NCBI GenBank assembly: GCA_001003475.1
Contig: LCPF01000001.1
Coordinates: 328,549 to 392,548, forward strand
Length of the DNA: 64,000 bases
Source of the DNA: Candidatus Jorgensenbacteria bacterium GW2011_GWA1_48_11
GTDB lineage: Bacteria > Patescibacteriota > Minisyncoccia > UBA6257 > GWB1-50-10
Direction: 5' to 3'
The notes under the pieces were generated by a model. It saw nothing but the letters and a program-made list of their open reading frames with translations. It was not told where the DNA came from and searched no databases. Below are positions 3,312-22,797 of this stretch, one piece after another (position 1 is the stretch's first letter; each line of letters begins with the position of its first letter). The position numbers and the translations under genes are program-made.

Positions 3312-3384
3312 TCCGCCCACTAGGAATCGAACCTAGAACCTTCTCCTTAAAAGGGAGCTGCTCTGCCAATTGAGCTATGGGCGG
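3312..3384 (-). tRNA. tRNA-Lys (anticodon UUU)
   Basis: The reverse complement folds as a cloverleaf: acceptor CCGCCCA/TGGGCGG, D-arm GCTCAATTGGCAGAGC, anticodon loop CTTTTAA and T-loop TTCGATT. CCA is not encoded. Confidence 0.8.
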
Positions 3385-3523
3385 GTTTAACTTTTAGAGT
3401 TTAACTTATCATTTATTTTAATTCAAGGTTGATTTTTAGAACAGTGTTCAGTTGACCGTTTAAGAATTAGAAATTAAAATGATTCTGCAATTTGATATTC
3501 GAAAAAGCATAAGAAGGTTCAGC

Positions 3524-3784
3524 TCCGCGGTAGCTCAGCGGTAGAGCGGCTCCCTGTCGAGATAATGGCAGCCCCAGGCAGTAATGTTTGGAGGAAAAAC
3601 CGGGCTAATTCGGGGAACTCTTGTATAAAGACAATCCCGAGCTAAATTCGCCCCAGGGCGATAAACGTGTAGAGACTATATACCCGGGCCCCTTAGAAAA
3701 AGGGACATGAGATAGTCCAGCCCCCTTGGCGACAAGGGAAAAACTGTAAGGAGATGGTCGTAGGTTCGAATCCTACCCGCGGAG
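3524..3784 (+). tRNA. tRNA-Asn (inferred anticodon GUU) interrupted by a 189-nt group I intron in the anticodon loop
   Basis: The 5' exon (3524-3557) reads TCCGCGG-TA-GCTCAGCGGTAGAGC-G-GCTCC-CTGT. The 3' exon (3747-3784) reads TAA-GGAGA-TGGTC-GTAGG-TTCGAAT-CCTAC-CCGCGGA-G. The spliced anticodon loop is CUGUUAA. The exon boundary is inferred from a U at the 5' exon end and a G at the intron end. Confidence 0.65.
3558..3746 (+). ncRNA. Group I intron (subgroup IC3-like, tRNA-type) inside the tRNA anticodon loop
   Basis: Core blocks resemble the small bacterial pre-tRNA group I introns (Azoarcus tRNA-Ile-like): GCTAAATTCG, GTGTAGAGACTA and a 3'-terminal G. Length is 189 nt and no ORF is present. 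Confidence 0.6.
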
Positions 3785-13290: not shown

Positions 13291-14214
13291 ATGGCTCTGT
13301 CGGCTAGTATTGCCAAGGAGAGTAGGGGCTATCTTCTCATCCCTACGAAGCGCATCCGCCGCTATCCGGGCCAGCCGAGGCTCTACATCGAGCCGCTCGC
13401 TCTCATGGGTCTTGAGGCGAGCATCAGACACATCGGTCAGCGACGGGCGATAACCGTAAAAGCGGTTACCGGTGATCCGGACCACGACTACGAGCTGATC
13501 GACGGCGAACGGCGCTGGCTTTGCTGCAAGCGCATCGGCACCGCGAAGATGAAGGCGGTCGTCGAGGAGCCGGAGAACGACGACGAGCAGTTCATCAGCT
13601 CGGTCATTCTGAACATTCCTTCGCAGGAGCACACGCCGCTCGAGATCGCCCACGCGATCGAGCGGATCCGGAAGAGCGAGAAGTTGAAGAGGATGCCGCG
13701 GACCGAGCAGATGAAGTACATCGGCGCGATGTTCGGCCACGACGAGATCTGGGCTTACCGGTATCTTCGTCTGCTCGAGCTCGATCATCGGGTGCACGTT
13801 CTGATGGACGGCAAGCGGTCCGAGGACGAGCGGTTGAATGTTTCGATCGCGTATTTCCTGCTGGGCTACTCGCCTGAGATCCAGGTGAAGAGTGCCTTGC
13901 GGGCGGTGACGATGGGCTGGAGCCTGCGGCAAGTCGAGGTCTACGCCGCGGGCCTTGCCGCCGAATCCGGGGAGATCAGGTCTGGCGTCCGGCCGAAAAG
14001 GCCCTCCGACAACTACCGGAATCTCCTGAGTTTCTTGAGGAGGCTCCACGAGGGGGCCGAGCTCGTTTTGAGCATGCCGAACCGGTCGTTCGAAGAGATG
14101 TTCCTGGCGCGCGACCCCAAGGATCGGGAGAAGACGATCGGGGAAGTGAGGGCCTGCCGGGCCGATCTCGCGGAGATCGAGCAGGTTCTCGAGCGCCTGA
14201 AGCAGAATGCGTGA
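13291..14214 (+). CDS. ParB-like nuclease (ParB/Srx) domain protein
   Basis: ParB N-terminal motif ELIDGERRWLCCKRIG. A strong SD (AAGGGGGA) lies upstream. The antisense ORF 13249-14049 is rejected. Confidence 0.7.
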   Translation: MALSASIAKESRGYLLIPTKRIRRYPGQPRLYIEPLALMGLEASIRHIGQRRAITVKAVTGDPDHDYELIDGERRWLCCKRIGTAKMKAVVEEPENDDEQFISSVILNIPSQEHTPLEIAHAIERIRKSEKLKRMPRTEQMKYIGAMFGHDEIWAYRYLRLLELDHRVHVLMDGKRSEDERLNVSIAYFLLGYSPEIQVKSALRAVTMGWSLRQVEVYAAGLAAESGEIRSGVRPKRPSDNYRNLLSFLRRLHEGAELVLSMPNRSFEEMFLARDPKDREKTIGEVRACRADLAEIEQVLERLKQNA

Positions 14215-14426: not shown

Positions 14427-15512
14427 ATGATAACGCCGATGCGCATAATCGGGCATTTGGACATGGATGCTTTCTTTGCCGCTGTCGAGGAGCGGGATAA
14501 TGACCGGTTCCGGGGGAAGCCGATCGTGGTCGGCGCCGATCCCGCGGGGGGCCGGGGCCGGGGCGTGGTTTCGACCGCCAATTACAAAGCGCGCGAATAC
14601 GGCATCCATTCGGCGATGGCTATTTCCGAAGCTTGGCGCCGGGCCGAGGAAGGCAAGCGCAAGGGCGGGCCGGCCGTTATATTTCTCGGCGGCAATTTCA
14701 AAAAATACGGCGCGGTCTCGGCCGAAATAATGGTCATTATCCGCGGGTACGCGCTCCTTGTCGAGGAAGCGAGCATTGACGAGGCTTATTTTGATCTGAG
14801 TTCCTGCGGCAGTTATGAAAAAGCCAGGGAGTTGGCTCTAAAGATCAAAGCCGAGGTTAAGGAAAAGGAAAGGCTCACGGCTACGATCGGCATTGGGCCG
14901 AACAAGTTGATCGCGAAGATCGCAAGCGATATGCAGAAGCCGGACGGCCTTACGGTCGTGAAAGATGATGAGGCCGAAAAATTTCTGGAGCCGCTCGCCA
15001 TTCGGAAAATTCCGGGCATCGGCCCCAAGACCCAAGAGTTTTTCAGGGCGAAGGGCGTGAAAATCGTCCGTGACCTTAAGAAATTCTCCAAAGCCGACCT
15101 TGAAAAATTTATGGGCAAGTGGGGGCTGGAACTTTACGAAAAGATCCGCGGCAAAGATGATTCGCCGATCGTTGAAGATTATGAAGTAAAGTCCATTGGC
15201 GAGCAGGAGACTTTTATGGCCGACACCCGCGACCTGAATTTCATTTCCGAGCGGCTTAGCGGGCTTTGCGAAAGCGTCATTGCCCGCTTCAAAGCAAGCG
15301 GTTTCAAGACCTATAAAACTATCATTTTGAGCGTTCGTTTTGCCGATTTCGAGACCAAGTCTCGCGCTCATACCTTGGAAAAGCCGGCCTGCGACCTTGC
15401 TACGCTCCGCTTCGAGGCCATGCGTCTTTTAGTGCCGTTTTTGGACAAAAGGGAAAACCCGCGCGGCAAGTTGATAAGGCTTATTGGCGTTAGGGTGGAG
15501 AAGCTGGTTTGA
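14427..15512 (+). CDS. dinB: DNA polymerase IV (Y-family translesion polymerase)
   Basis: N-terminal motif HLDMDAFFAAVE plus palm/finger/little-finger domains. 361 aa. Confidence 0.9.
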   Translation: MITPMRIIGHLDMDAFFAAVEERDNDRFRGKPIVVGADPAGGRGRGVVSTANYKAREYGIHSAMAISEAWRRAEEGKRKGGPAVIFLGGNFKKYGAVSAEIMVIIRGYALLVEEASIDEAYFDLSSCGSYEKARELALKIKAEVKEKERLTATIGIGPNKLIAKIASDMQKPDGLTVVKDDEAEKFLEPLAIRKIPGIGPKTQEFFRAKGVKIVRDLKKFSKADLEKFMGKWGLELYEKIRGKDDSPIVEDYEVKSIGEQETFMADTRDLNFISERLSGLCESVIARFKASGFKTYKTIILSVRFADFETKSRAHTLEKPACDLATLRFEAMRLLVPFLDKRENPRGKLIRLIGVRVEKLV

Positions 15513-15518
15513 ATAAAA

Positions 15519-15552
15519 AATCTCCTAAAAAAGGAGATTTCTTTTGTTTTTC
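15519..15552 (+). terminator. Rho-independent terminator after dinB
   Basis: AAATCTCCTAAAAAAGGAGATTT hairpin followed by a T-run. Confidence 0.6.
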
Positions 15553-15621
15553 AATTTTACCCAGCTTAGATTCTAAATTCTGAATTCTATATTCTAGACT
15601 TTGGGTGGTATAATTTAGGTA

Positions 15622-18309
15622 ATGAAAATTGAGGATTTTAGAAGCAAAATAGCTGATCTTATTCAAAAATATGAACGCGCTAAACAGTCAGGTTTAGTGA
15701 AGAAATATAGCGAAGAAGAGACAAAAAAGGATTTTATTTTGCCCCTTTTTGAGGCATTGGGTTGGGACGTTCGCGAAAAAAGAGAAGTTTCTGCTGAGGA
15801 AAAAATATCAGGAGATCGTGTTGATTATGGTTTTTATATCGACGGCCATATTAAATTCTATCTAGAAGCAAAACCATTAAGAGCAGATATACATAAGGAA
15901 GAATACGCTAAGCAAGCCATAAAATATTCTTGGAATAAGGGCGTTACTTGGGCAGTTCTTACCGACTTTGAAAGTCTTATCGTATTTAATACGCAAGACG
16001 TAAAGGCTTCTCTAGCGAGTAAGTTACTTTTTGAGATTCCATACAGTGAATATCTAGAACGATTCGACCAATTATCGCTTTTGTCTCGAGAATCTTTTAA
16101 AGAGAATTCTATCGATGATTGGGCTGAAAAAAATGGTAAAAAGTTTCAAAAAGTCCCGATTACTGCACTTCTGTATAACGATCTAAACGAATGCCGTGAA
16201 ATGCTTACAAAATCACTTGTTGCTTGGAATCCAAATCTCAAAAAAGATAGAAAACTTTTAGACGAAGGCGTCCAGAAATTATTAGATCGCCTTATTTTCT
16301 TGAGGGTAGCAGAAGATCGTGGCATTGAGCCACCTACACTTATTCCACTTTTACGTGAATGGCATTCCCGTAAGGATAAAAATGAAGTTCCATTATACGC
16401 TCATATGGTTAAAAAGTTTAGGGATTTGGACAAAACTTATAACTCTAATTTATTTTCTGAGCATCCATTTGAAAAATGGGAAGAATATGGAGATGCCACA
16501 GAAGAAGTCATTAAAATTTTATATGGTAAACCCGGTTATTATGAATATGATTTTAAAGTTATGCCTGCCGATATTTTGGGTACGGTCTATGAAAATTACC
16601 TCGGCTATAAGCTTTCTCAATCGAAAAAAGGAATTGATGTTCATAAAGATGCGAAGAAGCGCAAAGAACAAGGTATTTATTACACGCCTCATTTTATTGT
16701 TGAGTATATTGTTAAGAATGCACTTGGTCCTGTTTTAGATAGATGTGAAACAATTGAGGATCTAAAAAAAGTTAAGGTTCTGGATCCTGCTTGTGGTTCT
16801 GGTTCTTTTCTTGTTCAGGCACTTGAACTTATTAATGAAAAATATAAGCGGATGGGCGCGCCCGGCAACATTTTTACAAAAACCCAAATTCTTCTCCTAA
16901 ATATTTTTGGCGTTGATTTGGATGAACAAGCGGTTGAAATTGCTCGTCTTAATCTTTTAGTAAGCGCTTTAGATGGTAAAAATCCTTTACCCAAACTTGA
17001 TCAGAATATTAAATGTGGTAATTCTCTTATTTATGGTACTGATGCCGAATTAAAAAAGTATTTTGGTACGACCTTTAAGGATCAAAAACCCTTCAATTGG
17101 GAAGAAGAATTTCCCGATGTATTTGAGAAGGGTGGTTTTACCGTAGTAATTGGGAATCCGCCGTGGGGAGCGAGCATAGATAAGTTTAATAAGAGCTTTT
17201 ATAAAGATTTCTTTGTTTCTGGTAAGGGAATAATAGATACATTCGCATTATTTATAGAGAGATCACTTGGTCTTTTGAAAGAAGAGGGATATTTGGGTTT
17301 TATTCTCCCCGATATCGTTTTGTTGAAAAATTATCCTCAGATAAGAAAATTTATTTTGGATAATTGTCTTATTAAAAATCTTTATTATACAGGTATGGCG
17401 TTCCATGGTGTCAATTTAGATTCTGTGATTGCAATTTTAAAGAAGGAAAAATCAGAGGGAAAAAGGAATGAAAATTATATAGAAATTATTATGGACAGTA
17501 GGGAGAAAAGAATTAAACAACAACTATTTTTAAATAATTCTGATTATAAATTTAATTTATATTTCGATGACTACATCATTAAACTGAAAAATAAAGTAGA
17601 TAGTCAATCAATTAAGTTGGGGGGTTTGTTAGAAATTCATGAAGGAATACACTCTGGAAATATTAGGGATAAATTATTTTTGGATTCGCGATTGTCTAAT
17701 AAGTGCCAAAAACTTTTATTTAAAGGTGTTGAGGTAGAACGATATTTTGAAAAATGGGGAGGAAAATTCGTGAATTATGATAAAAGCATTATCAATAAAA
17801 CGGCAGGTAATTATGCAAACCTAGGTAAAGAAGAATATTTTTTAAGCAAAAAGATATTAGTTAGAAGAACCGGTGATAGGATTATTGCTACGATTGATAA
17901 CGATAAGTATTTCGTGAGTAATAATTTTTTTGTTTTGTATTATAAGAAATCTTTAAAAGAAGAAATTGATTTAAAATGTATTCTAGCGATTCTAAATTCC
18001 AAACTAGGAACATGGTATTTTACTGCAATTCAACCTCGTAAAGGGAAGTTATTTGCTGAAATTAAAATTAATCATTTAGCAGAGATCCCTATTTCTAAAA
18101 AGCGAGAATTCGATAAGATTTTTGTACTAGTTGATCAAATGTCTGAATCGCAGAAGAAATTTCATATCACTAAAGAGAATTCAAACGACTGGGAACGATT
18201 AGAATCCGAAATTGAAAAAACCGACAAGAAAATAGACGAAGAGATATATAAGCTTTACCGCCTTACGCCGGAGGAGATTAAAATAGTAGAAACAACAATA
18301 AAGGATTAA
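15622..18309 (+). CDS. Type IIG (MmeI-like) restriction-modification enzyme: N-terminal nuclease fused to a gamma-class N6-adenine methyltransferase and TRD
   Basis: HsdR-N/Mrr-like N-terminus (EEETKKDFILPLFEALGWDV), MTase motif I (VLDPACGSGSFLV) and motif IV (GNPPWG). 895 aa. Located in a ~33% GC island. Confidence 0.75.
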   Translation: MKIEDFRSKIADLIQKYERAKQSGLVKKYSEEETKKDFILPLFEALGWDVREKREVSAEEKISGDRVDYGFYIDGHIKFYLEAKPLRADIHKEEYAKQAIKYSWNKGVTWAVLTDFESLIVFNTQDVKASLASKLLFEIPYSEYLERFDQLSLLSRESFKENSIDDWAEKNGKKFQKVPITALLYNDLNECREMLTKSLVAWNPNLKKDRKLLDEGVQKLLDRLIFLRVAEDRGIEPPTLIPLLREWHSRKDKNEVPLYAHMVKKFRDLDKTYNSNLFSEHPFEKWEEYGDATEEVIKILYGKPGYYEYDFKVMPADILGTVYENYLGYKLSQSKKGIDVHKDAKKRKEQGIYYTPHFIVEYIVKNALGPVLDRCETIEDLKKVKVLDPACGSGSFLVQALELINEKYKRMGAPGNIFTKTQILLLNIFGVDLDEQAVEIARLNLLVSALDGKNPLPKLDQNIKCGNSLIYGTDAELKKYFGTTFKDQKPFNWEEEFPDVFEKGGFTVVIGNPPWGASIDKFNKSFYKDFFVSGKGIIDTFALFIERSLGLLKEEGYLGFILPDIVLLKNYPQIRKFILDNCLIKNLYYTGMAFHGVNLDSVIAILKKEKSEGKRNENYIEIIMDSREKRIKQQLFLNNSDYKFNLYFDDYIIKLKNKVDSQSIKLGGLLEIHEGIHSGNIRDKLFLDSRLSNKCQKLLFKGVEVERYFEKWGGKFVNYDKSIINKTAGNYANLGKEEYFLSKKILVRRTGDRIIATIDNDKYFVSNNFFVLYYKKSLKEEIDLKCILAILNSKLGTWYFTAIQPRKGKLFAEIKINHLAEIPISKKREFDKIFVLVDQMSESQKKFHITKENSNDWERLESEIEKTDKKIDEEIYKLYRLTPEEIKIVETTIKD

Positions 18310-18338
18310 AATTACGTTTAAGGCTATTAGAAAATAGT

Positions 18339-19232
18339 ATGAAAAACAGAATTCAAAAAATTCAAAAGTATTTAGAAGGAAAGAATATTAAGAACAAGCT
18401 TATTTCTAAAAATAAGTCAGATCATCTTCTTATTAATGGTGATTGTGATGAGGTAATGATGTTATTGCCCGAAAAGAGTGTCGATCTAATCATTACTGAT
18501 CCGCCGTATAATCAATCTCTAGATTACGGATTACGTTTTAATGATAATAAAAGCTGGGCGGAATATTATGCATGGTTGGAGCAAAAGCTTTCACAGATTC
18601 CAAGATTACTAAGTGATAAAGGAAGTTTCTATTTAATAAGTTATCCAGAAATTAACGCGCGAATATTACCATTTCTTGAGGATAGACTAAAGCTAAATTT
18701 CAGACGTTGGATTACTTGGCATTATCCAACAAATATTGGCCATTCATATAAAAATTTTACAAGAAGCCAACGCTCGATACTCTTTTTTACTAAGAGGGGA
18801 AAAGGATACGTTTTTAACCAAAAAGAAATCATACAACCATATAAGAATCCTACTGCTCCCGTAATTAAAGAACGCTACCGTCTGGGTTATAAAGGAAGAG
18901 CCGCTTACGATGCACTAGGTTTAGAGGATTTGATAGAGATAGATTTGCTTAAGAATAACTCTCCAGAAAGATTTCGAAATATTGATTCTAAATTTGTTTC
19001 TTTAGATAACAATAAGGAAAAGCTTAAAAAAATTGATCACCCATGCCAATTGCCGCTTAGTTTATTGGAGCTATTTATAAAAGTTAGTAGTAAATCAAAT
19101 TCTGTGATATTTGATCCTTTTGCTGGCACGTTCACCACGTCAGCCGCCGCAGCGAATTTGGGCAGAAATTCTATAGGAGTGGATTTAAATCCTAAATTTA
19201 TTAAATTTGGTGTTAAGAGATTAAAAAAATAA
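18339..19232 (+). CDS. DNA methyltransferase, beta class (N4-C or N6-A; DPPY before FxGxG)
   Basis: Motif IV (DPPYN) precedes motif I (FDPFAGTFTTSAAA). Confidence 0.8.
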   Translation: MKNRIQKIQKYLEGKNIKNKLISKNKSDHLLINGDCDEVMMLLPEKSVDLIITDPPYNQSLDYGLRFNDNKSWAEYYAWLEQKLSQIPRLLSDKGSFYLISYPEINARILPFLEDRLKLNFRRWITWHYPTNIGHSYKNFTRSQRSILFFTKRGKGYVFNQKEIIQPYKNPTAPVIKERYRLGYKGRAAYDALGLEDLIEIDLLKNNSPERFRNIDSKFVSLDNNKEKLKKIDHPCQLPLSLLELFIKVSSKSNSVIFDPFAGTFTTSAAAANLGRNSIGVDLNPKFIKFGVKRLKK

Positions 19233-19234
19233 AA

Positions 19235-20983
19235 ATGACTGGAGAAGAAGAATTAAAAAGTCTATTAGGATCTCTTGGTTTTAATGTTTTTGTATTTGAT
19301 GAGGGAGATGATAAAAGTGGTATTACCATACAACGCACGAAAGATCAGGAGCCTTGTGAAATAGATGCTATAGCTATACACGAAAACGTTATTATCTTAA
19401 TTAACGCTTATAGAGGTTTACGCAGTAGAAAGGCGTTTGATAAAATACCTGATTTTTTTCGACAACTAAGATATTTAGACACCCCTGATAAACTAAATCT
19501 AGTTGTTAGTAATCAGAAATTACCAGCTGGTAATAAAAATTTAAAATCCATAGGTCTTATCAAAGACCTTATACAAAAAAGTTCTTATGATTGGTTACTT
19601 ATAAAATTAGCATTTTCTCCAAACGTCCATATTCCCATCGGGAAAATTGAACTTAATAATCAGGAGATAATTTTTGATAAAAAACATAACGATTATTTTG
19701 GATATGGTATAGAAAATATAGGAGGAGAATACATGAGACAAGAATTTCTTTATTTTCTTAAGATTAAAATGCGGGAATTCAAACGTTTAAAGGGAAGTAG
19801 AGTTGGTGATGAGCCGGAGTTAACTGCAGATTTTCAAAGTATAGAAACTAAATTGAATGATAATCAGACAATGTATTCAACTAGTGTTTCTGTAAGTGAT
19901 ATTATTCCTTATATTCAGGTGTTGCGAGTTGCCGATGAATATAATGAACAGGCATTTCAACGAATGATAAATGGGGAAATTATAAAAAGAATTTCCAATG
20001 AGTATCTTAATAAAAATAAATCTTTCCCCAATAATATAATTCTTGCCTTTAATCCAGATATATATAATCATGGACGCGCTATTAATTTCGCAGGAGCTAA
20101 AAGAATAAAGTTTTATAAGGAGTTTGGTTCGCTAATCGTCATAGATGGACAACATAGATTACTTGCTCACCTTTTAGAAAAAAATAGAGATTATCTAAAA
20201 TCAGTTTTGGTAAATGTAATTTTATTTGAAACTAAAGATAGAGCTAAAGCATTTGATCAAATGGCTGAGTTGTTTTATCTCATTAATACTAAACAAAAGA
20301 AACTTACATCTCTGGTGTCGTTAAGAATACGTTCCAAAATTATTCCTTCCGATATGGAGTCAATATGGTATAGGGTTTTTGAAAAATTAAATAACATGGA
20401 TCAAAGAGACAATTATCTTTTTGAAAAAATTTCATTTGATGAAAAAGAAATACGTAAAGAGAAAAACGGGATTAATATAAGTAGTATAATATCTTATTCT
20501 GGCCTTAAAAGGATTTCTAATGGAGTAAAGAAAGGGAAAAAGAATTTAATAGGCTTAAAAGATATTTATTTACAGCAGGTCGTATTTAAGAACGAAGAGC
20601 AATTTTACGAAAATTTTGTTAGAAAATATTTCAGTATTATTGGAGAAATAATCGATAGAAATACAAAAATGGCGGCTCGTGATTTCGGTGGTTTATTAAG
20701 AATAGCAATACATTTCTTAAATGATTCTAAAACAAAAGATGTATTTAAAAACTTTGCTTTGGAAAATAATGCATTGCCTACAAAAATCGTTGAAGATATA
20801 AAAAGCTATTTTATTAGGATACCTTTTAATAAACTTGATCAATTAGAATATGGCGCTAATGCGTGGGCAATAATGGAAGGTTTTTTCCTTGGGAATATTC
20901 GAAAACATCATAGAGGATTTGGTATTTCTTCACTGTTGAGTAAAAAAGGACAGGCGGCAATGAAGAAAGGCAAAAAGTTTTAA
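19235..20983 (+). CDS. DGQHR-domain protein (DndB/DpdB-like ParB-fold) with an N-terminal nuclease-like region
   Basis: An exact DGQHR motif (SLIVIDGQHRLLAHL) sits at about residue 300. The start is only 3 nt downstream of the MTase stop. 582 aa. Confidence 0.65.
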   Translation: MTGEEELKSLLGSLGFNVFVFDEGDDKSGITIQRTKDQEPCEIDAIAIHENVIILINAYRGLRSRKAFDKIPDFFRQLRYLDTPDKLNLVVSNQKLPAGNKNLKSIGLIKDLIQKSSYDWLLIKLAFSPNVHIPIGKIELNNQEIIFDKKHNDYFGYGIENIGGEYMRQEFLYFLKIKMREFKRLKGSRVGDEPELTADFQSIETKLNDNQTMYSTSVSVSDIIPYIQVLRVADEYNEQAFQRMINGEIIKRISNEYLNKNKSFPNNIILAFNPDIYNHGRAINFAGAKRIKFYKEFGSLIVIDGQHRLLAHLLEKNRDYLKSVLVNVILFETKDRAKAFDQMAELFYLINTKQKKLTSLVSLRIRSKIIPSDMESIWYRVFEKLNNMDQRDNYLFEKISFDEKEIRKEKNGINISSIISYSGLKRISNGVKKGKKNLIGLKDIYLQQVVFKNEEQFYENFVRKYFSIIGEIIDRNTKMAARDFGGLLRIAIHFLNDSKTKDVFKNFALENNALPTKIVEDIKSYFIRIPFNKLDQLEYGANAWAIMEGFFLGNIRKHHRGFGISSLLSKKGQAAMKKGKKF

Positions 20984-21014
20984 TATTATTATTGTTTCTA
21001 GCTTTAGTTATATC

Positions 21015-21055
21015 GAAGCCTGCGCAAAGTGCGCGGGCTTCATTATTTTATATTT
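21015..21055 (+). terminator. Hairpin terminator at the end of the RM operon
   Basis: A GAAGCCTGCGC/GCGCGGGCTTC stem followed by an A/T-rich run. Confidence 0.4.
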
Positions 21056-21075
21056 TGGCGGCGGATTTGACGATT

Positions 21076-21501
21076 TTATTTTGAATAAGGAATTATATTT
21101 TCTTCCAAGAACATTCTTATTTTTGAAAGATAAAGATCTTTTTCTTTTGGTTTGCTTTCCGCGATTTCAACTGCGAATCGGTAGAGCTCGTTGTTCGAAA
21201 CCTTAAGCCACTTCCGGTTTTTGAAGAGAAAAACCAAAAGCGTCATTACCGCTAACCGCTTATTGCCGTTCTCGAACGGATGATTTTTTATCATCAAATA
21301 AAAAAGGATAGCTGCCTTCCCGGTTAATTTCCGATAAAGCGGCTTGCCGTACGTTTGGAACGGCGTTTGAATGTAGCTTTCAAGAACATTCGGGAACCTC
21401 GTGCCAAAGTCCGGTATTGGCTCATCGAAGGTCATCAATTCCTTGGCTAGCCTGAAAGCAGTATATTCAACCTCTTTTAAGTTGATTATTTTTATCTTCA
21501 T
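21076..21501 (-). CDS. doc: Doc (death-on-curing) family toxin, Fic fold
   Basis: Fic/Doc motif HPFENGNKR. Overlaps the upstream antitoxin gene by 4 nt (ATGA). Confidence 0.85.
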   Translation of the reverse strand: MKIKIINLKEVEYTAFRLAKELMTFDEPIPDFGTRFPNVLESYIQTPFQTYGKPLYRKLTGKAAILFYLMIKNHPFENGNKRLAVMTLLVFLFKNRKWLKVSNNELYRFAVEIAESKPKEKDLYLSKIRMFLEENIIPYSK

Positions 21502-21749
21502 TCCTGGCCGAGTTTTTTGAAAGCCGTTCCATATTCGGTCACGGCTCGCCGCACGGCTTTGTCTATTTCGCTTTTATTTTCTTCGCCGATCGATTTACCG
21601 AGGAGTTTCAAGACTTCTTCTTTGGGGATGACATAGTTCCGACCGATCTTGCTGGCCTTAATCTGGCCATTCACTATTTTTTTATGGATGGCTATTCGGC
21701 TGACTTTAAGCGCTTTCGCGACTTCGGCGGTGGAAAGGAAATCCGTCAT
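21498..21749 (-). CDS. HTH (MerR/excisionase-like) DNA-binding antitoxin
   Basis: N-terminal HTH (TAEVAKALKVSRIAIHKKI). The 83-aa gene is co-oriented and translationally coupled with doc. Confidence 0.7.
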   Translation of the reverse strand: MTDFLSTAEVAKALKVSRIAIHKKIVNGQIKASKIGRNYVIPKEEVLKLLGKSIGEENKSEIDKAVRRAVTEYGTAFKKLGQE

Positions 21750-21750
21750 A

Positions 21751-21780
21751 TTTATAGGTTAACATATGTTAACCTATAAA
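21751..21780. promoter_or_regulatory. 30-bp perfect palindrome TTTATAGGTTAACATATGTTAACCTATAAA abutting the antitoxin start: candidate TA autoregulatory operator
   Basis: Perfect dyad symmetry located 1 nt upstream of the antitoxin ATG. Confidence 0.6.
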
Positions 21781-21917
21781 TTCAAGACCGCAAGTAGATT
21801 TATGCCCTTAGAACCTGGACGACTGGCGTCGGCTTTGCCGGTTTTTTTTGGAGATTTACTTGACGAGAAGTGTAAAGAGTGCCATCCTTTTTAACAGTAC
21901 GAAAGGTGGTGATACCG

Positions 21918-22115: not shown

Positions 22116-22310
22116 TATCACCATAGAACAATGGAATAGAAGCGGGATTCGTCCCCGCCCGGAGAAAGCGAAATTTCTCCCGTGAGACCCCTGCCCGGGC
22201 AATTACTCGGGTTAACCGTTAAGGGGTCTTTTTTTTCGACTAAATGGCGGCGGCTTTGCCCCCAGATCGTTATGTTTCAGTCGTCTCATTTCATCCGTCC
22301 CGCCACCCGC

Positions 22311-22340
22311 CTCAAAATCGCGTATATACGCGATTTTGAG
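22311..22340. promoter_or_regulatory. 30-bp perfect palindrome CTCAAAATCGCGTATATACGCGATTTTGAG upstream of tspO
   Basis: Perfect dyad. It is followed by a second 10-bp palindrome (GGATGCATCC) and a T-run. Confidence 0.4.
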
Positions 22341-22401
22341 GATGCATCCTTGTCTGGTTTTTATTGGCGGCGCCGTGTTTTGAAAATGATAGAATGAATT
22401 T

Positions 22402-22797
22402 ATGCAAACCTACGCGCAATTTTACGAAGCGATAAAAAAGCCGTTCTTTGCCCCGCCGGGGTGGGTTTTCGGGACGGCCTGGGGGATCATCTACCCGCTC
22501 ATCACGATCGCTTTCATCTATACCTGCGTTCTCGTGATCCGGAAAAGGGTTCCGACCAATCTCCTTTGGGTCTTGATCGCAAACCTCATTGCCAATTTTC
22601 TCTTTACGCCCATTCAACTCGGGTTCGCCGCTCTATGGCCGGCGTCTTTGGTCATTCTCTTCATTTTCGGCACGCTCGCTTTCTTCGAATACAAAATTTG
22701 GCGTCATTCGAAAGTCGTTTTCTTCCTCCTTCTGCCGTATCTTTTGTGGGGCGCCTTCGCGACGATTTTGCAGATCACGATAACTTTCATAAACTAA
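22402..22797 (+). CDS. tspO: TspO/MBR family tryptophan-rich sensory protein (short form)
   Basis: A Trp/Pro-rich 4-5 TM protein (PPGWVFGTAWGIIYPLI). Confidence 0.7.
   Translation: MQTYAQFYEAIKKPFFAPPGWVFGTAWGIIYPLITIAFIYTCVLVIRKRVPTNLLWVLIANLIANFLFTPIQLGFAALWPASLVILFIFGTLAFFEYKIWRHSKVVFFLLLPYLLWGAFATILQITITFIN

Follow-up and report, generated by a model that had tools for sequence, protein, structure and literature searches.

Introduction

Among the defence proteins that read a mark on DNA, the closest described systems to the one considered here are DndI and SspE, each of which joins a ParB-fold nucleoside triphosphatase (NTPase) with a DGQQR motif to a nuclease in one chain (PMC11662687; PMC12065111). 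The self mark stimulates ATP hydrolysis in DndI, upon which the enzyme is released from self DNA (PMC11662687), and in SspE it activates cleavage (PMC12065111). A helical "ParBDB" DNA-binding domain follows the ParB-DUF262 domain in DndB, GmrSD, SspE and NsnA (PMC12065111), and ParB-fold domains, including that of a DndB-like protein, bind ATP, GTP or CTP via a Box II arginine (bioRxiv 10.1101/2025.10.10.680097). Here we describe a two-gene cassette, consisting of a beta-class DNA methyltransferase (MTase) of 297 aa and a 582-aa protein with a central DGQHR domain, which lies in an AT-rich block of a 64-kb stretch of Candidatus Jorgensenbacteria bacterium GW2011_GWA1_48_11 (contig LCPF01000001.1, positions 328,549 to 392,548; hereafter the window, whose own numbering is used throughout). 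ParB-like COG1479/DGQHR domains have already been noted, in a general way, fused to PD-(D/E)xK nucleases near restriction-modification (RM) systems (PMC3632139), and the architecture of the cassette is thus not conceptually new.

Results

Linkage of the methyltransferase and DGQHR genes

The plus-strand genes of the block, together with the domains of the DGQHR protein, are as follows.

15622..18309, plus strand: stand-alone Type IIG RM enzyme, 895 aa (Pfam, PADLOC, motifs, PDB relatives)
18339..19232, plus strand: beta-class amino-MTase, 297 aa (PF01555, PADLOC, M.MboIIA/M.RsrI)
19235-20983, plus strand: full DGQHR gene, 582 aa
19235..19819, plus strand: PD-(D/E)xK-fold nuclease-like domain, residues 1-195 (AlphaFold, Foldseek, weak profiles; D22, E42-x-D44, N57-x-Y59, K70)
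19820..20314, plus strand: ParB/Srx-fold DGQHR NTPase domain, residues 196-360 (Q242-R243, D304-G-Q-H-R308, F347xxxN351)
20315..20983, plus strand: helical C-terminal domain, residues 361-582 plus stop (putative DNA binding, ParBDB-like)

The MTase and the DGQHR protein are genetically linked and inherited together. Of the 22 distinct contexts, the window among them, 19 place an N6_N4 MTase next to a long DGQHR protein (~560-620 aa), and in 15 of these 19 (the window, L001, L006, L007, L126, L092, L097, L128, L129, L102, L107, L112, L117, L132 and L133) a methylase of 266-317 aa lies immediately upstream on the same strand, with an overlap of 4-10 nt or a gap of 1-18 nt. The other four have a larger MTase downstream (L122), two larger, divergent MTases (L005), a convergent arrangement (L113/L119) and a called fragment (L124). 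Elsewhere, the MTase orthologues directly upstream of DGQHR orthologues are 50-62% identical to that of the window (full-length BLASTP). The short, DndB-sized DGQHR proteins in viral contigs had no adjacent MTase.

The RM genes beside the pair vary, a BcgI-like or Type I-like system being among them: L001 has a Type III-like pair, L006 an EcoRI methylase together with GmrSD-HNH, L007 and L126 an HSDR_N-N6_Mtase gene accompanied by an S subunit, L097 Type I genes and L129 a complete HaeIII-type pair of methylase (M) and restriction (R) genes. Plasmids of Rhizobium ruizarguesonis NZLR24 and Phyllobacterium zundukense Tri-48 carry the pair by itself, surrounded by unrelated genes; the methylases of these two plasmids have SPPY in place of DPPY. 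No orthologue of the window's Type IIG gene was found in the other cassette contexts; it is present only in the window. Because the pair recurs without it, we conclude that the three plus-strand genes, which the sequence-only reading had grouped as one system, probably do not act as one: the MTase travels with the DGQHR gene (19/22), and the Type IIG gene never does.

Two of the metagenome loci, L007 (Ga0210057_1015993) and L126 (Ga0210018_1003463), bear on how the pair is exchanged. Their DNA is 100% identical for more than 5 kb, from the RM genes to the middle of the MTase gene; past the breakpoint (region L007 5290-5704) identity falls to 67-72% up to the MTase stop, and the sequences are unrelated through the DGQHR gene (26% protein identity). 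With the breakpoint inside the MTase gene, the 3' half of that gene and the DGQHR gene have been exchanged together, in what is a recent recombination event. That one and the same methylase had two different partners was considered for these loci and was ruled out by the sliding-window comparison, which placed the breakpoint within the MTase.

The MTases are consistently the better conserved of the two: between the window and L126 the MTases are 62% and the DGQHR proteins 27% identical, and between the window and L092 the values are 55% and 32%; an M gene that is better conserved than its R partner is the usual RM pattern. The 297-aa MTase itself matches PF01555 (2.3e-43, 149 bits against a cutoff of 26.7) and PADLOC MTase_II (1.5e-45), and its motif IV, DPPY (~residue 54), precedes motif I, FDPFAGTFTT (~residue 258). 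Its closest solved structures are M.MboIIA (2.3e-25) and M.RsrI, and it thus probably methylates N6 of adenine.

Domains of the DGQHR protein

Residues 1-195 of the 582-aa protein are modelled by AlphaFold with a predicted local distance difference test score (pLDDT) of 94 and an alpha-beta-beta-beta-alpha-beta core. Nearly all of the top 50 Foldseek neighbours of this domain in the PDB are PD-(D/E)xK nucleases (probability up to 0.99), among them Can2, R2 endonuclease, AF1548, the R.BspD6I small subunit, Bax1, Card1, Hjc, NucS and Cas4, and there are weak profile matches to Can2 (E=0.023), Hjc, NERD and HSDR_N_2. Alignment on Hjc places the catalytic Asp at D44 and the E-x-K motif at residues 57-59. 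Over 123 full-length family members, D stands at position 44 in 120, an acidic residue (E or D) at position 42 in 113 and E at position 57 in 102; at position 59 the commonest residue is T (79 members), while 13 have Y and 6 have K. At position 70, on the helix that follows, 107 members have H or K, a conserved residue that might act as a substitute. The clade to which the window's protein belongs has invariant residues of its own (D22, D148-K149) and keeps the domain at 49% identity. An identification of the domain with Shedu (DUF4263) was rejected, there being no such Pfam match. The full protein likewise gave no GmrSD_N, DUF1524 or HNH match in Pfam and no match to any restriction endonuclease (REase) model in PADLOC.

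The central domain (residues ~196-360) scores 58.7 bits with TIGR03187, whose cutoff is 58.85. The QR pair, DGQHR and FxxxN motifs named for this domain (PMC4619093) are all found in it, with DGQHR (304-308), R243 and N351 invariant in the 123 relatives and Q242 and F347 each kept in 122. There is a Foldseek match to the N-domain of pNOB8 ParB, and the Box II arginine that binds nucleotides in other ParB-fold domains corresponds to R308. The models for DndB remain far under threshold (PF14072, 19.9 against 29.1 bits; TIGR04172, 26.5 against 450), as does that for DpdB (NF041060, 37 against 300 bits; PADLOC DpdB weakly, 3.3e-8), and the neighbourhood of the gene contains no dnd or dpd genes. 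The label "DndB/DpdB-like" in the sequence-only reading therefore suits the central domain only, since the thresholds are failed, the dnd and dpd partners are lacking and there is an additional N-terminal nuclease-fold domain. A PADLOC comparison, which that reading had recommended, returns REase_MTase_IIG and MTase_II for the two upstream genes and for the DGQHR protein nothing beyond the weak DpdB match.

Residues 361-582 are all-helical in the model and have a mean identity of 55% within the clade; by its position this domain would bind DNA in a ParBDB-like manner. HEPN domains have been reported in DndB (Makarova 2013). An HEPN assignment of this C-terminus was rejected, R489-x3-H493 being a misfit to Rx4-6H, with the R in 52 of 123 members and the H in 43.

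Sequence searches of the PDB with the 582-aa protein, by single sequence and by profile, returned nothing, so that no solved structure is related to it by sequence, and PADLOC, Pfam, NCBIfam and the PDB hold no specific model for it; public naming of the family, RefSeq included, goes no further than "DGQHR domain-containing protein". Close relatives are rare (13 matches in a word-indexed search), and a second search of that kind, started from a 59-sequence alignment, left the family no larger. An exhaustive hidden Markov model search did enlarge it, yielding 776 representatives of similar length (50% clustering) at E<1e-10 and 45 at E<1e-30, which range from uncultured low-GC lineages to Rhizobiales plasmids.

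Annotation of the family in public records is uneven. At L008 (8727-9500, 10001-11251; source assembly ERZ27254732) the public gene calls cut both cassette genes short, with 257 aa for the MTase and 416 aa for the DGQHR protein, and the latter call hides the N-terminal nuclease-fold domain; homologue alignments back the full 297-aa and 582-aa open reading frames (ORFs) from the first ATG. The PLSDB RGI layer tags the DGQHR gene of L133 (4869-6695; NZ_CP017943.1) as "lmrP, MFS antibiotic efflux pump", in all likelihood a wrong call of a resistance gene. Other DGQHR-domain proteins, of smaller size, are encoded by the filamentous Pf-type Pseudomonas phage PfAC19 (OR863248.1, 2995-3519) and by plasmids of Burkholderia glumae and of clinical Providencia (H1-H19); they match the central domain only, at 27-31% identity.

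Type IIG enzyme

The 895-aa protein is, by its domains and motifs, an intact stand-alone Type IIG enzyme of the Eco57I type and not a member of the MmeI family. Its Pfam matches are, in order, HSDR_N (9e-8), Eco57I (1e-33) with N6_Mtase (7e-24), and TaqI_C (3e-23), and PADLOC returns REase_MTase_IIG at 2.6e-102. Read from the translation, the N-terminal PD-(D/E)xK nuclease motif is intact (D68...E82-A-K84), as are the gamma-class N6-adenine MTase motifs VLDPACGSGSF (motif I) and GNPPW (motif IV), and a TaqI-like specificity domain (target recognition domain, TRD) forms the C-terminus of the same chain. Such an enzyme would cut and methylate at its own asymmetric site as a single polypeptide. 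The closest solved relatives in the PDB search are BREX PglX, CamA and M.TaqI, and the plasmid-borne relatives that were searched are at most 30% identical. The earlier description as "MmeI-like" was not borne out: only the generic PF20473 MmeI_Mtase matches (43.9 bits), overlapping stronger matches to Eco57I (117 bits) and N6_Mtase; the MmeI N-terminal, helical-spacer, TRD and C-terminal models give no match at E<=0.01, and the PDB matches include no MmeI chain.

An extended -10 element, TGGTATAAT (window 15590-15624), ends 12 nt before the ATG of this gene, with no evident Shine-Dalgarno sequence, and transcription from it may give the first gene of the island an mRNA with almost no leader. 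The consensus promoter scan omitted the site, which has a poor -35 element.

Toxin-antitoxin module

The minus-strand features at the right of the block are as follows.

21076..21501, minus strand: Doc (Fic-fold) toxin, 141 aa (TIGR01550, Fic, motif HPFENGNKR)
21498..21749, minus strand: HTH_17 (excisionase/MerR-type) antitoxin candidate, 83 aa, overlapping the Doc start by 4 nt
21750..21781: perfect 16+16-nt palindrome ATTTATAGGTTAACAT/ATGTTAACCTATAAAT directly upstream of the gene for the helix-turn-helix (HTH) protein, an inverted repeat, 100% complementary, without spacer

The toxin exceeds the cutoff of TIGR01550 DOC_P1 (53.8 against 38.65 bits), matches Fic (7e-9) and finds the death-on-curing protein 9vzc in the PDB. 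The antitoxin candidate matches HTH_17 (2e-9) and TIGR01764 (1.5e-9), with a weak C-terminal "doc_partner" match (0.0084), and by Pfam and NCBIfam is not of the Phd/YefM family. The 32-bp palindrome is a probable autoregulatory operator of the HTH antitoxin, which would neutralise the Doc kinase toxin and repress its own promoter at that site. A second perfect 16+16-nt palindrome, CCTCAAAATCGCGTAT/ATACGCGATTTTGAGG, at 22310-22341, some 60 nt upstream of the tspO start, is a candidate operator.

A 16-nt motif, TGGCG(G/T)CGG(A/C)TTTG(A/C)C, occurs on the same strand at 21056-21071, 21824-21839 and 22245-22260, all three within 1.2 kb. The first two copies lie on either side of the Doc/HTH module, and the second and third on either side of the segment of small ORFs that precedes tspO. 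If up to 3 mismatches are allowed, the window has 9 matches where 1.1 would be expected. The motif was examined as a possible att-like repeat, but the likeness stops at 16 nt; it may be left over from sites of module insertion or may have a regulatory function.

Composition, edges and origin of the block

The genes and hairpins that border the block are as follows.

14427-15512: dinB (DNA polymerase IV), left flank (NF002677, 315 bits)
15518..15540, plus strand: terminator-like hairpin directly after the dinB stop, a 9-bp stem then a T run, at the left edge of the AT-rich block
21015..21041: GC-rich hairpin with a 12-bp stem, between the convergent DGQHR and Doc genes, at the right edge of the sharply AT-rich block
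22402-22797: TspO/MBR-family gene (tspO), right flank

ORF analysis finds all five genes of the block intact. The sequence-only reading was upheld in its gene identities, every domain call (Type IIG fusion, beta-class MTase, DGQHR protein, Doc, HTH) being reproduced, in the position of the block between dinB and tspO, both flanking genes having been identified by profile, and in the convergence of the Doc and HTH genes, both on the minus strand, with the DGQHR gene. The plus-strand genes are co-directional and tightly packed as it said, with intergenic gaps of 29 nt (Type IIG-MTase) and 2 nt (MTase-DGQHR) in place of the 30 and 3 nt it gave, and both ends of the plus-strand gene set bear the terminator-like hairpins listed above (15518-15540, 21015-21041).

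The sharp departure from the flanks is real: from 15.5 to 21.05 kb the GC content is 30-33% and that at third codon positions (GC3) 21-27%, against 50.6% GC in the rest of the window. In 500-nt steps GC is 0.50-0.62 before 15.5 kb, 0.27-0.36 across 15.5-21.0 kb, 0.40-0.46 over 21.0-21.8 kb and ~0.50 beyond; at 2-kb resolution the block (0.32-0.36) is the GC minimum of the window, the sole other dip lying at 26-30 kb (0.38-0.40). Gene by gene, GC and GC3 are 32.8% and 26% (Type IIG), 32.8% and 27% (MTase) and 29.7% and 21% (DGQHR), 39% and 49% (Doc) and 47% and 55% (HTH), and, among the neighbours, 54% and 66% (dinB), 50% and 67% (tspO) and 62% and 83% (the ParB-like gene at 13291-14214). Because Doc and HTH together stand at 42% GC, the sharply AT-rich block is 15.5-21.05 kb and not the full 6.2 kb that had been claimed, and the toxin-antitoxin pair probably has a history separate from it. 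The ~600 nt between that pair and tspO hold small ORFs without family match.

Composition makes a strong case that the block at 15.5-21.05 kb was acquired horizontally. In each of the 12 metagenome loci measured the cassette is likewise AT-rich (26-40% GC), mostly on low-GC contigs, which fits a low-GC donor for the window's copy. That the block was "inserted" is backed by its foreign composition and not by any mark of mobility: no tRNA lies within 12 kb, the island has neither an integrase nor a transposase, convincing flanking direct repeats are lacking, and a search with the dinB protein against GTDB representative genomes found no empty site and no close relative. The best dinB relatives are 58-65% identical and of mixed taxa (Deltaproteobacteria, Paceibacteria, Saccharibacteria, Nitrospirota); they have neither the window's ParB-like gene nor its TspO gene nearby, are not syntenic and carry no trace of the island genes. 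The only two assemblies known to carry the locus both contain the island in the same arrangement.

Elsewhere in the window, a group I catalytic intron, matching RF00028 over the whole model (56.7 bits), occupies 3438-3739 on the plus strand, 54 nt from a tRNA-Lys(UUU) on the opposite strand (3312-3384, minus). The segment 25700-30300 (GC 37-40%) encodes a class I SAM methyltransferase, an unknown 203-aa protein, a nucleotidyltransferase-like protein, a polyprenyl synthetase and a GT4 glycosyltransferase, and is possibly a horizontally acquired envelope or glycan cluster.

Discussion

There is nothing unusual about the island as such, a foreign AT-rich block that carries genes for restriction and addiction; what stands out is the cassette within it, an uncharacterised, widespread module that is probably of restriction type. 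Taken as a whole, the explanation we favour, and hold to be somewhat probable, is that the block is compositionally foreign cargo in which three independent modules lie side by side rather than one system, that the 297-aa MTase is the modification half of a conserved two-gene cassette, and that this cassette is RM-like, with an NTP-gated nuclease on the restriction side. The MTase would mark host DNA as self by methylation, and its 582-aa partner would serve as the restriction component, combining a nuclease-fold domain, an NTPase switch or sensor and a helical DNA-binding domain in a role in defence. By analogy to DndI, SspE and GmrSD, the DGQHR domain may gate or direct the N-terminal nuclease by methylation status, with NTP binding and hydrolysis linking recognition of the methyl mark either to release of the protein from self DNA or to cleavage of unmarked DNA. 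One could further envision an undescribed RM class in which a ParB-fold NTPase switch, not a helicase motor, couples the reading of N6-methyladenine or N4-methylcytosine (m6A/m4C) to cleavage, making the cassette the methylation-based counterpart of the phosphorothioate-sensing DndI and SspE; this joint claim we put forward tentatively, as conceivable rather than probable.

Several observations weigh against an NTP-gated restriction nuclease. The literature yielded no description or test of this DGQHR-MTase family and no experiment on any member. The Foldseek scores for the nuclease fold are modest (E at least 1.8e-3, TM 0.3-0.38). The window's clade has N/S/T-x-Y at residues 57-59 instead of E-x-K, and the Lys position is mostly Thr in the family, so that the nuclease site departs from the canonical form and may be inactive; active REases such as MspI and Cfr10I are known with N or S in place of the acidic residue. 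Three of the 22 contexts (L003, L099, L100) have no adjacent MTase, and such orphans would be dangerous if the protein were a classical restriction enzyme. DpdB is an ATPase that assists modification, not restriction, and ParB-fold domains fused to N6_N4 MTases occur in phages with no nuclease role proposed (bioRxiv 10.1101/2025.10.10.680097). Finally, the 29-nt gap between the Type IIG and MTase genes contains no terminator; the cassette may be co-transcribed with the Type IIG gene, and a functional link at this locus is possible.

The principal alternative is that the cassette modifies DNA and does nothing else, the DGQHR protein being a nucleotide-dependent loader or regulator of the MTase and its N-terminal domain a degenerate, non-catalytic DNA-binding remnant. 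It has models in DpdB, the ATPase required for base insertion that serves DpdA, and in the ParB-fold/N6_N4 MTase fusions, which are common in phages; it would also accommodate the three orphan members, the N-x-Y that replaces E-x-K in the window's clade and the variability of that position in the closest subfamily (E, G, N, C, A, D). However, D44 is near-invariant and E/D42 and E57 are conserved across the 123 members, the N-terminal domain has been retained at 49% identity within the clade, and gene order, overlap and location in RM islands are typical of M-R pairs. In one locus (L129) the pair lies beside a complete HaeIII-type M+R pair, and small beta-class MTases require no helper. We regard this alternative as unlikely. 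A nuclease that is modification-dependent and Type IV-like, comparable to GmrSD or BrxU and next to a functionally unrelated MTase through the clustering of defence genes, would have the same combination of ParB-fold NTPase and nuclease as those enzymes and would be at home in loci that are RM islands, but overlapping frames and adjacency to one MTase family in 19 of 22 contexts far exceed loose clustering, and the stand-alone plasmid pairs, like the recombination that moved the MTase 3' half and the DGQHR gene as one unit, also speak against chance association; we consider it very improbable.

The same comparative data make it unlikely that all three plus-strand genes constitute one system, with the MTase as companion methylase of the Type IIG enzyme and the DGQHR protein as a DndB-like regulator or accessory. 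The co-directional genes, the 29-nt and 2-nt gaps and the lack of a terminator between them are what such a system would present, and Eco57I-type enzymes do have separate methylases, as M.Eco57I for R.Eco57I. A regulatory role has a precedent as well, DndB being reported as a repressor of its own modification operon (PMC4507180). Against this stand the recurrence of the pair in 18 other contexts without a Type IIG orthologue, its occurrence alone on two plasmids and the fact that the neighbouring RM genes are different each time, and a single three-gene system has, in our judgement, little probability. Least probable of all is a block that is native and long resident, AT-rich by chance and not recently acquired: no integrase, tRNA, transposase or flanking direct repeat accompanies it and its arrangement is the same in both assemblies, but its GC3 of 21-27% contrasts with 66-83% in the flanking genes, homologous cassettes elsewhere sit on low-GC contigs and the closest dinB relatives show none of the island genes.

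PADLOC would miss the cassette, returning a weak DpdB match only and leaving the methylase to appear as an orphan. If the cassette is a restriction system, a new type of nuclease would join the RM systems, the role of ParB-fold NTPases as sensors of epigenetic marks would extend from phosphorothioate and glucosyl-hydroxymethylcytosine (glucosyl-hmC) to plain methylation, and many apparently "orphan" beta-class methylases in genome annotations would have to be reclassified. Rhizobium ruizarguesonis NZLR24 and Phyllobacterium zundukense Tri-48 are cultured carriers, which makes the question directly testable.

Set against known systems, the 582-aa protein shares with DndI, SspE, GmrSD and BrxU a ParB-fold NTPase with DGQ(Q/H)R, QR and FxxxN motifs that is followed by a helical, presumably DNA-binding region and is linked within one polypeptide to a nuclease-type domain, and the cassette resembles DndI and SspE in that these work with a separate DNA-modification module that marks self. 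Its nuclease fold is PD-(D/E)xK and N-terminal, however, whereas that of DndI, SspE and GmrSD is HNH/DUF1524 and C-terminal; its NTPase domain is of the DGQHR type (TIGR03187) and theirs of the DUF262 type; and its partner is a simple amino-MTase rather than the Dnd or Ssp sulfur-insertion machinery of DndI and SspE. DndB and DpdB, which give the best family-level matches, have the central DGQHR ParB-fold domain in common with it, but the 582-aa protein is ~200 residues longer, owing to the N-terminal nuclease-fold domain, and is partnered by an MTase. Shedu type 1D also combines a ParB/Srx-superfamily NTPase with a PD-(D/E)xK-type nuclease (DUF4263) in one defence protein; the order of the domains is reversed there, the 582-aa protein has no DUF4263 match, and Shedu works without an obligatory methylase partner.

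As a gene pair, the cassette resembles classical Type II systems (MboII, RsrI, HaeIII-type), in which a small beta-class MTase is translationally coupled to a larger protein with the PD-(D/E)xK fold; like them it is mobile, AT-rich and found in RM islands, with the M gene the better conserved, and it differs from them in that the putative R protein has an NTPase switch domain and a non-canonical catalytic motif. The other two modules have familiar counterparts. The 895-aa protein is like Eco57I-type Type IIG enzymes in joining a PD-(D/E)xK nuclease, a gamma-class N6A MTase (NPPW) and a TaqI-like TRD in one chain, and the toxin-antitoxin pair is like Phd-Doc of phage P1 in its Doc motif of the HxFx(D/N)(A/G)NKR type, its upstream overlapping antitoxin gene and its palindromic operator, but with an antitoxin of HTH_17/excisionase type in place of the Phd/YefM fold.

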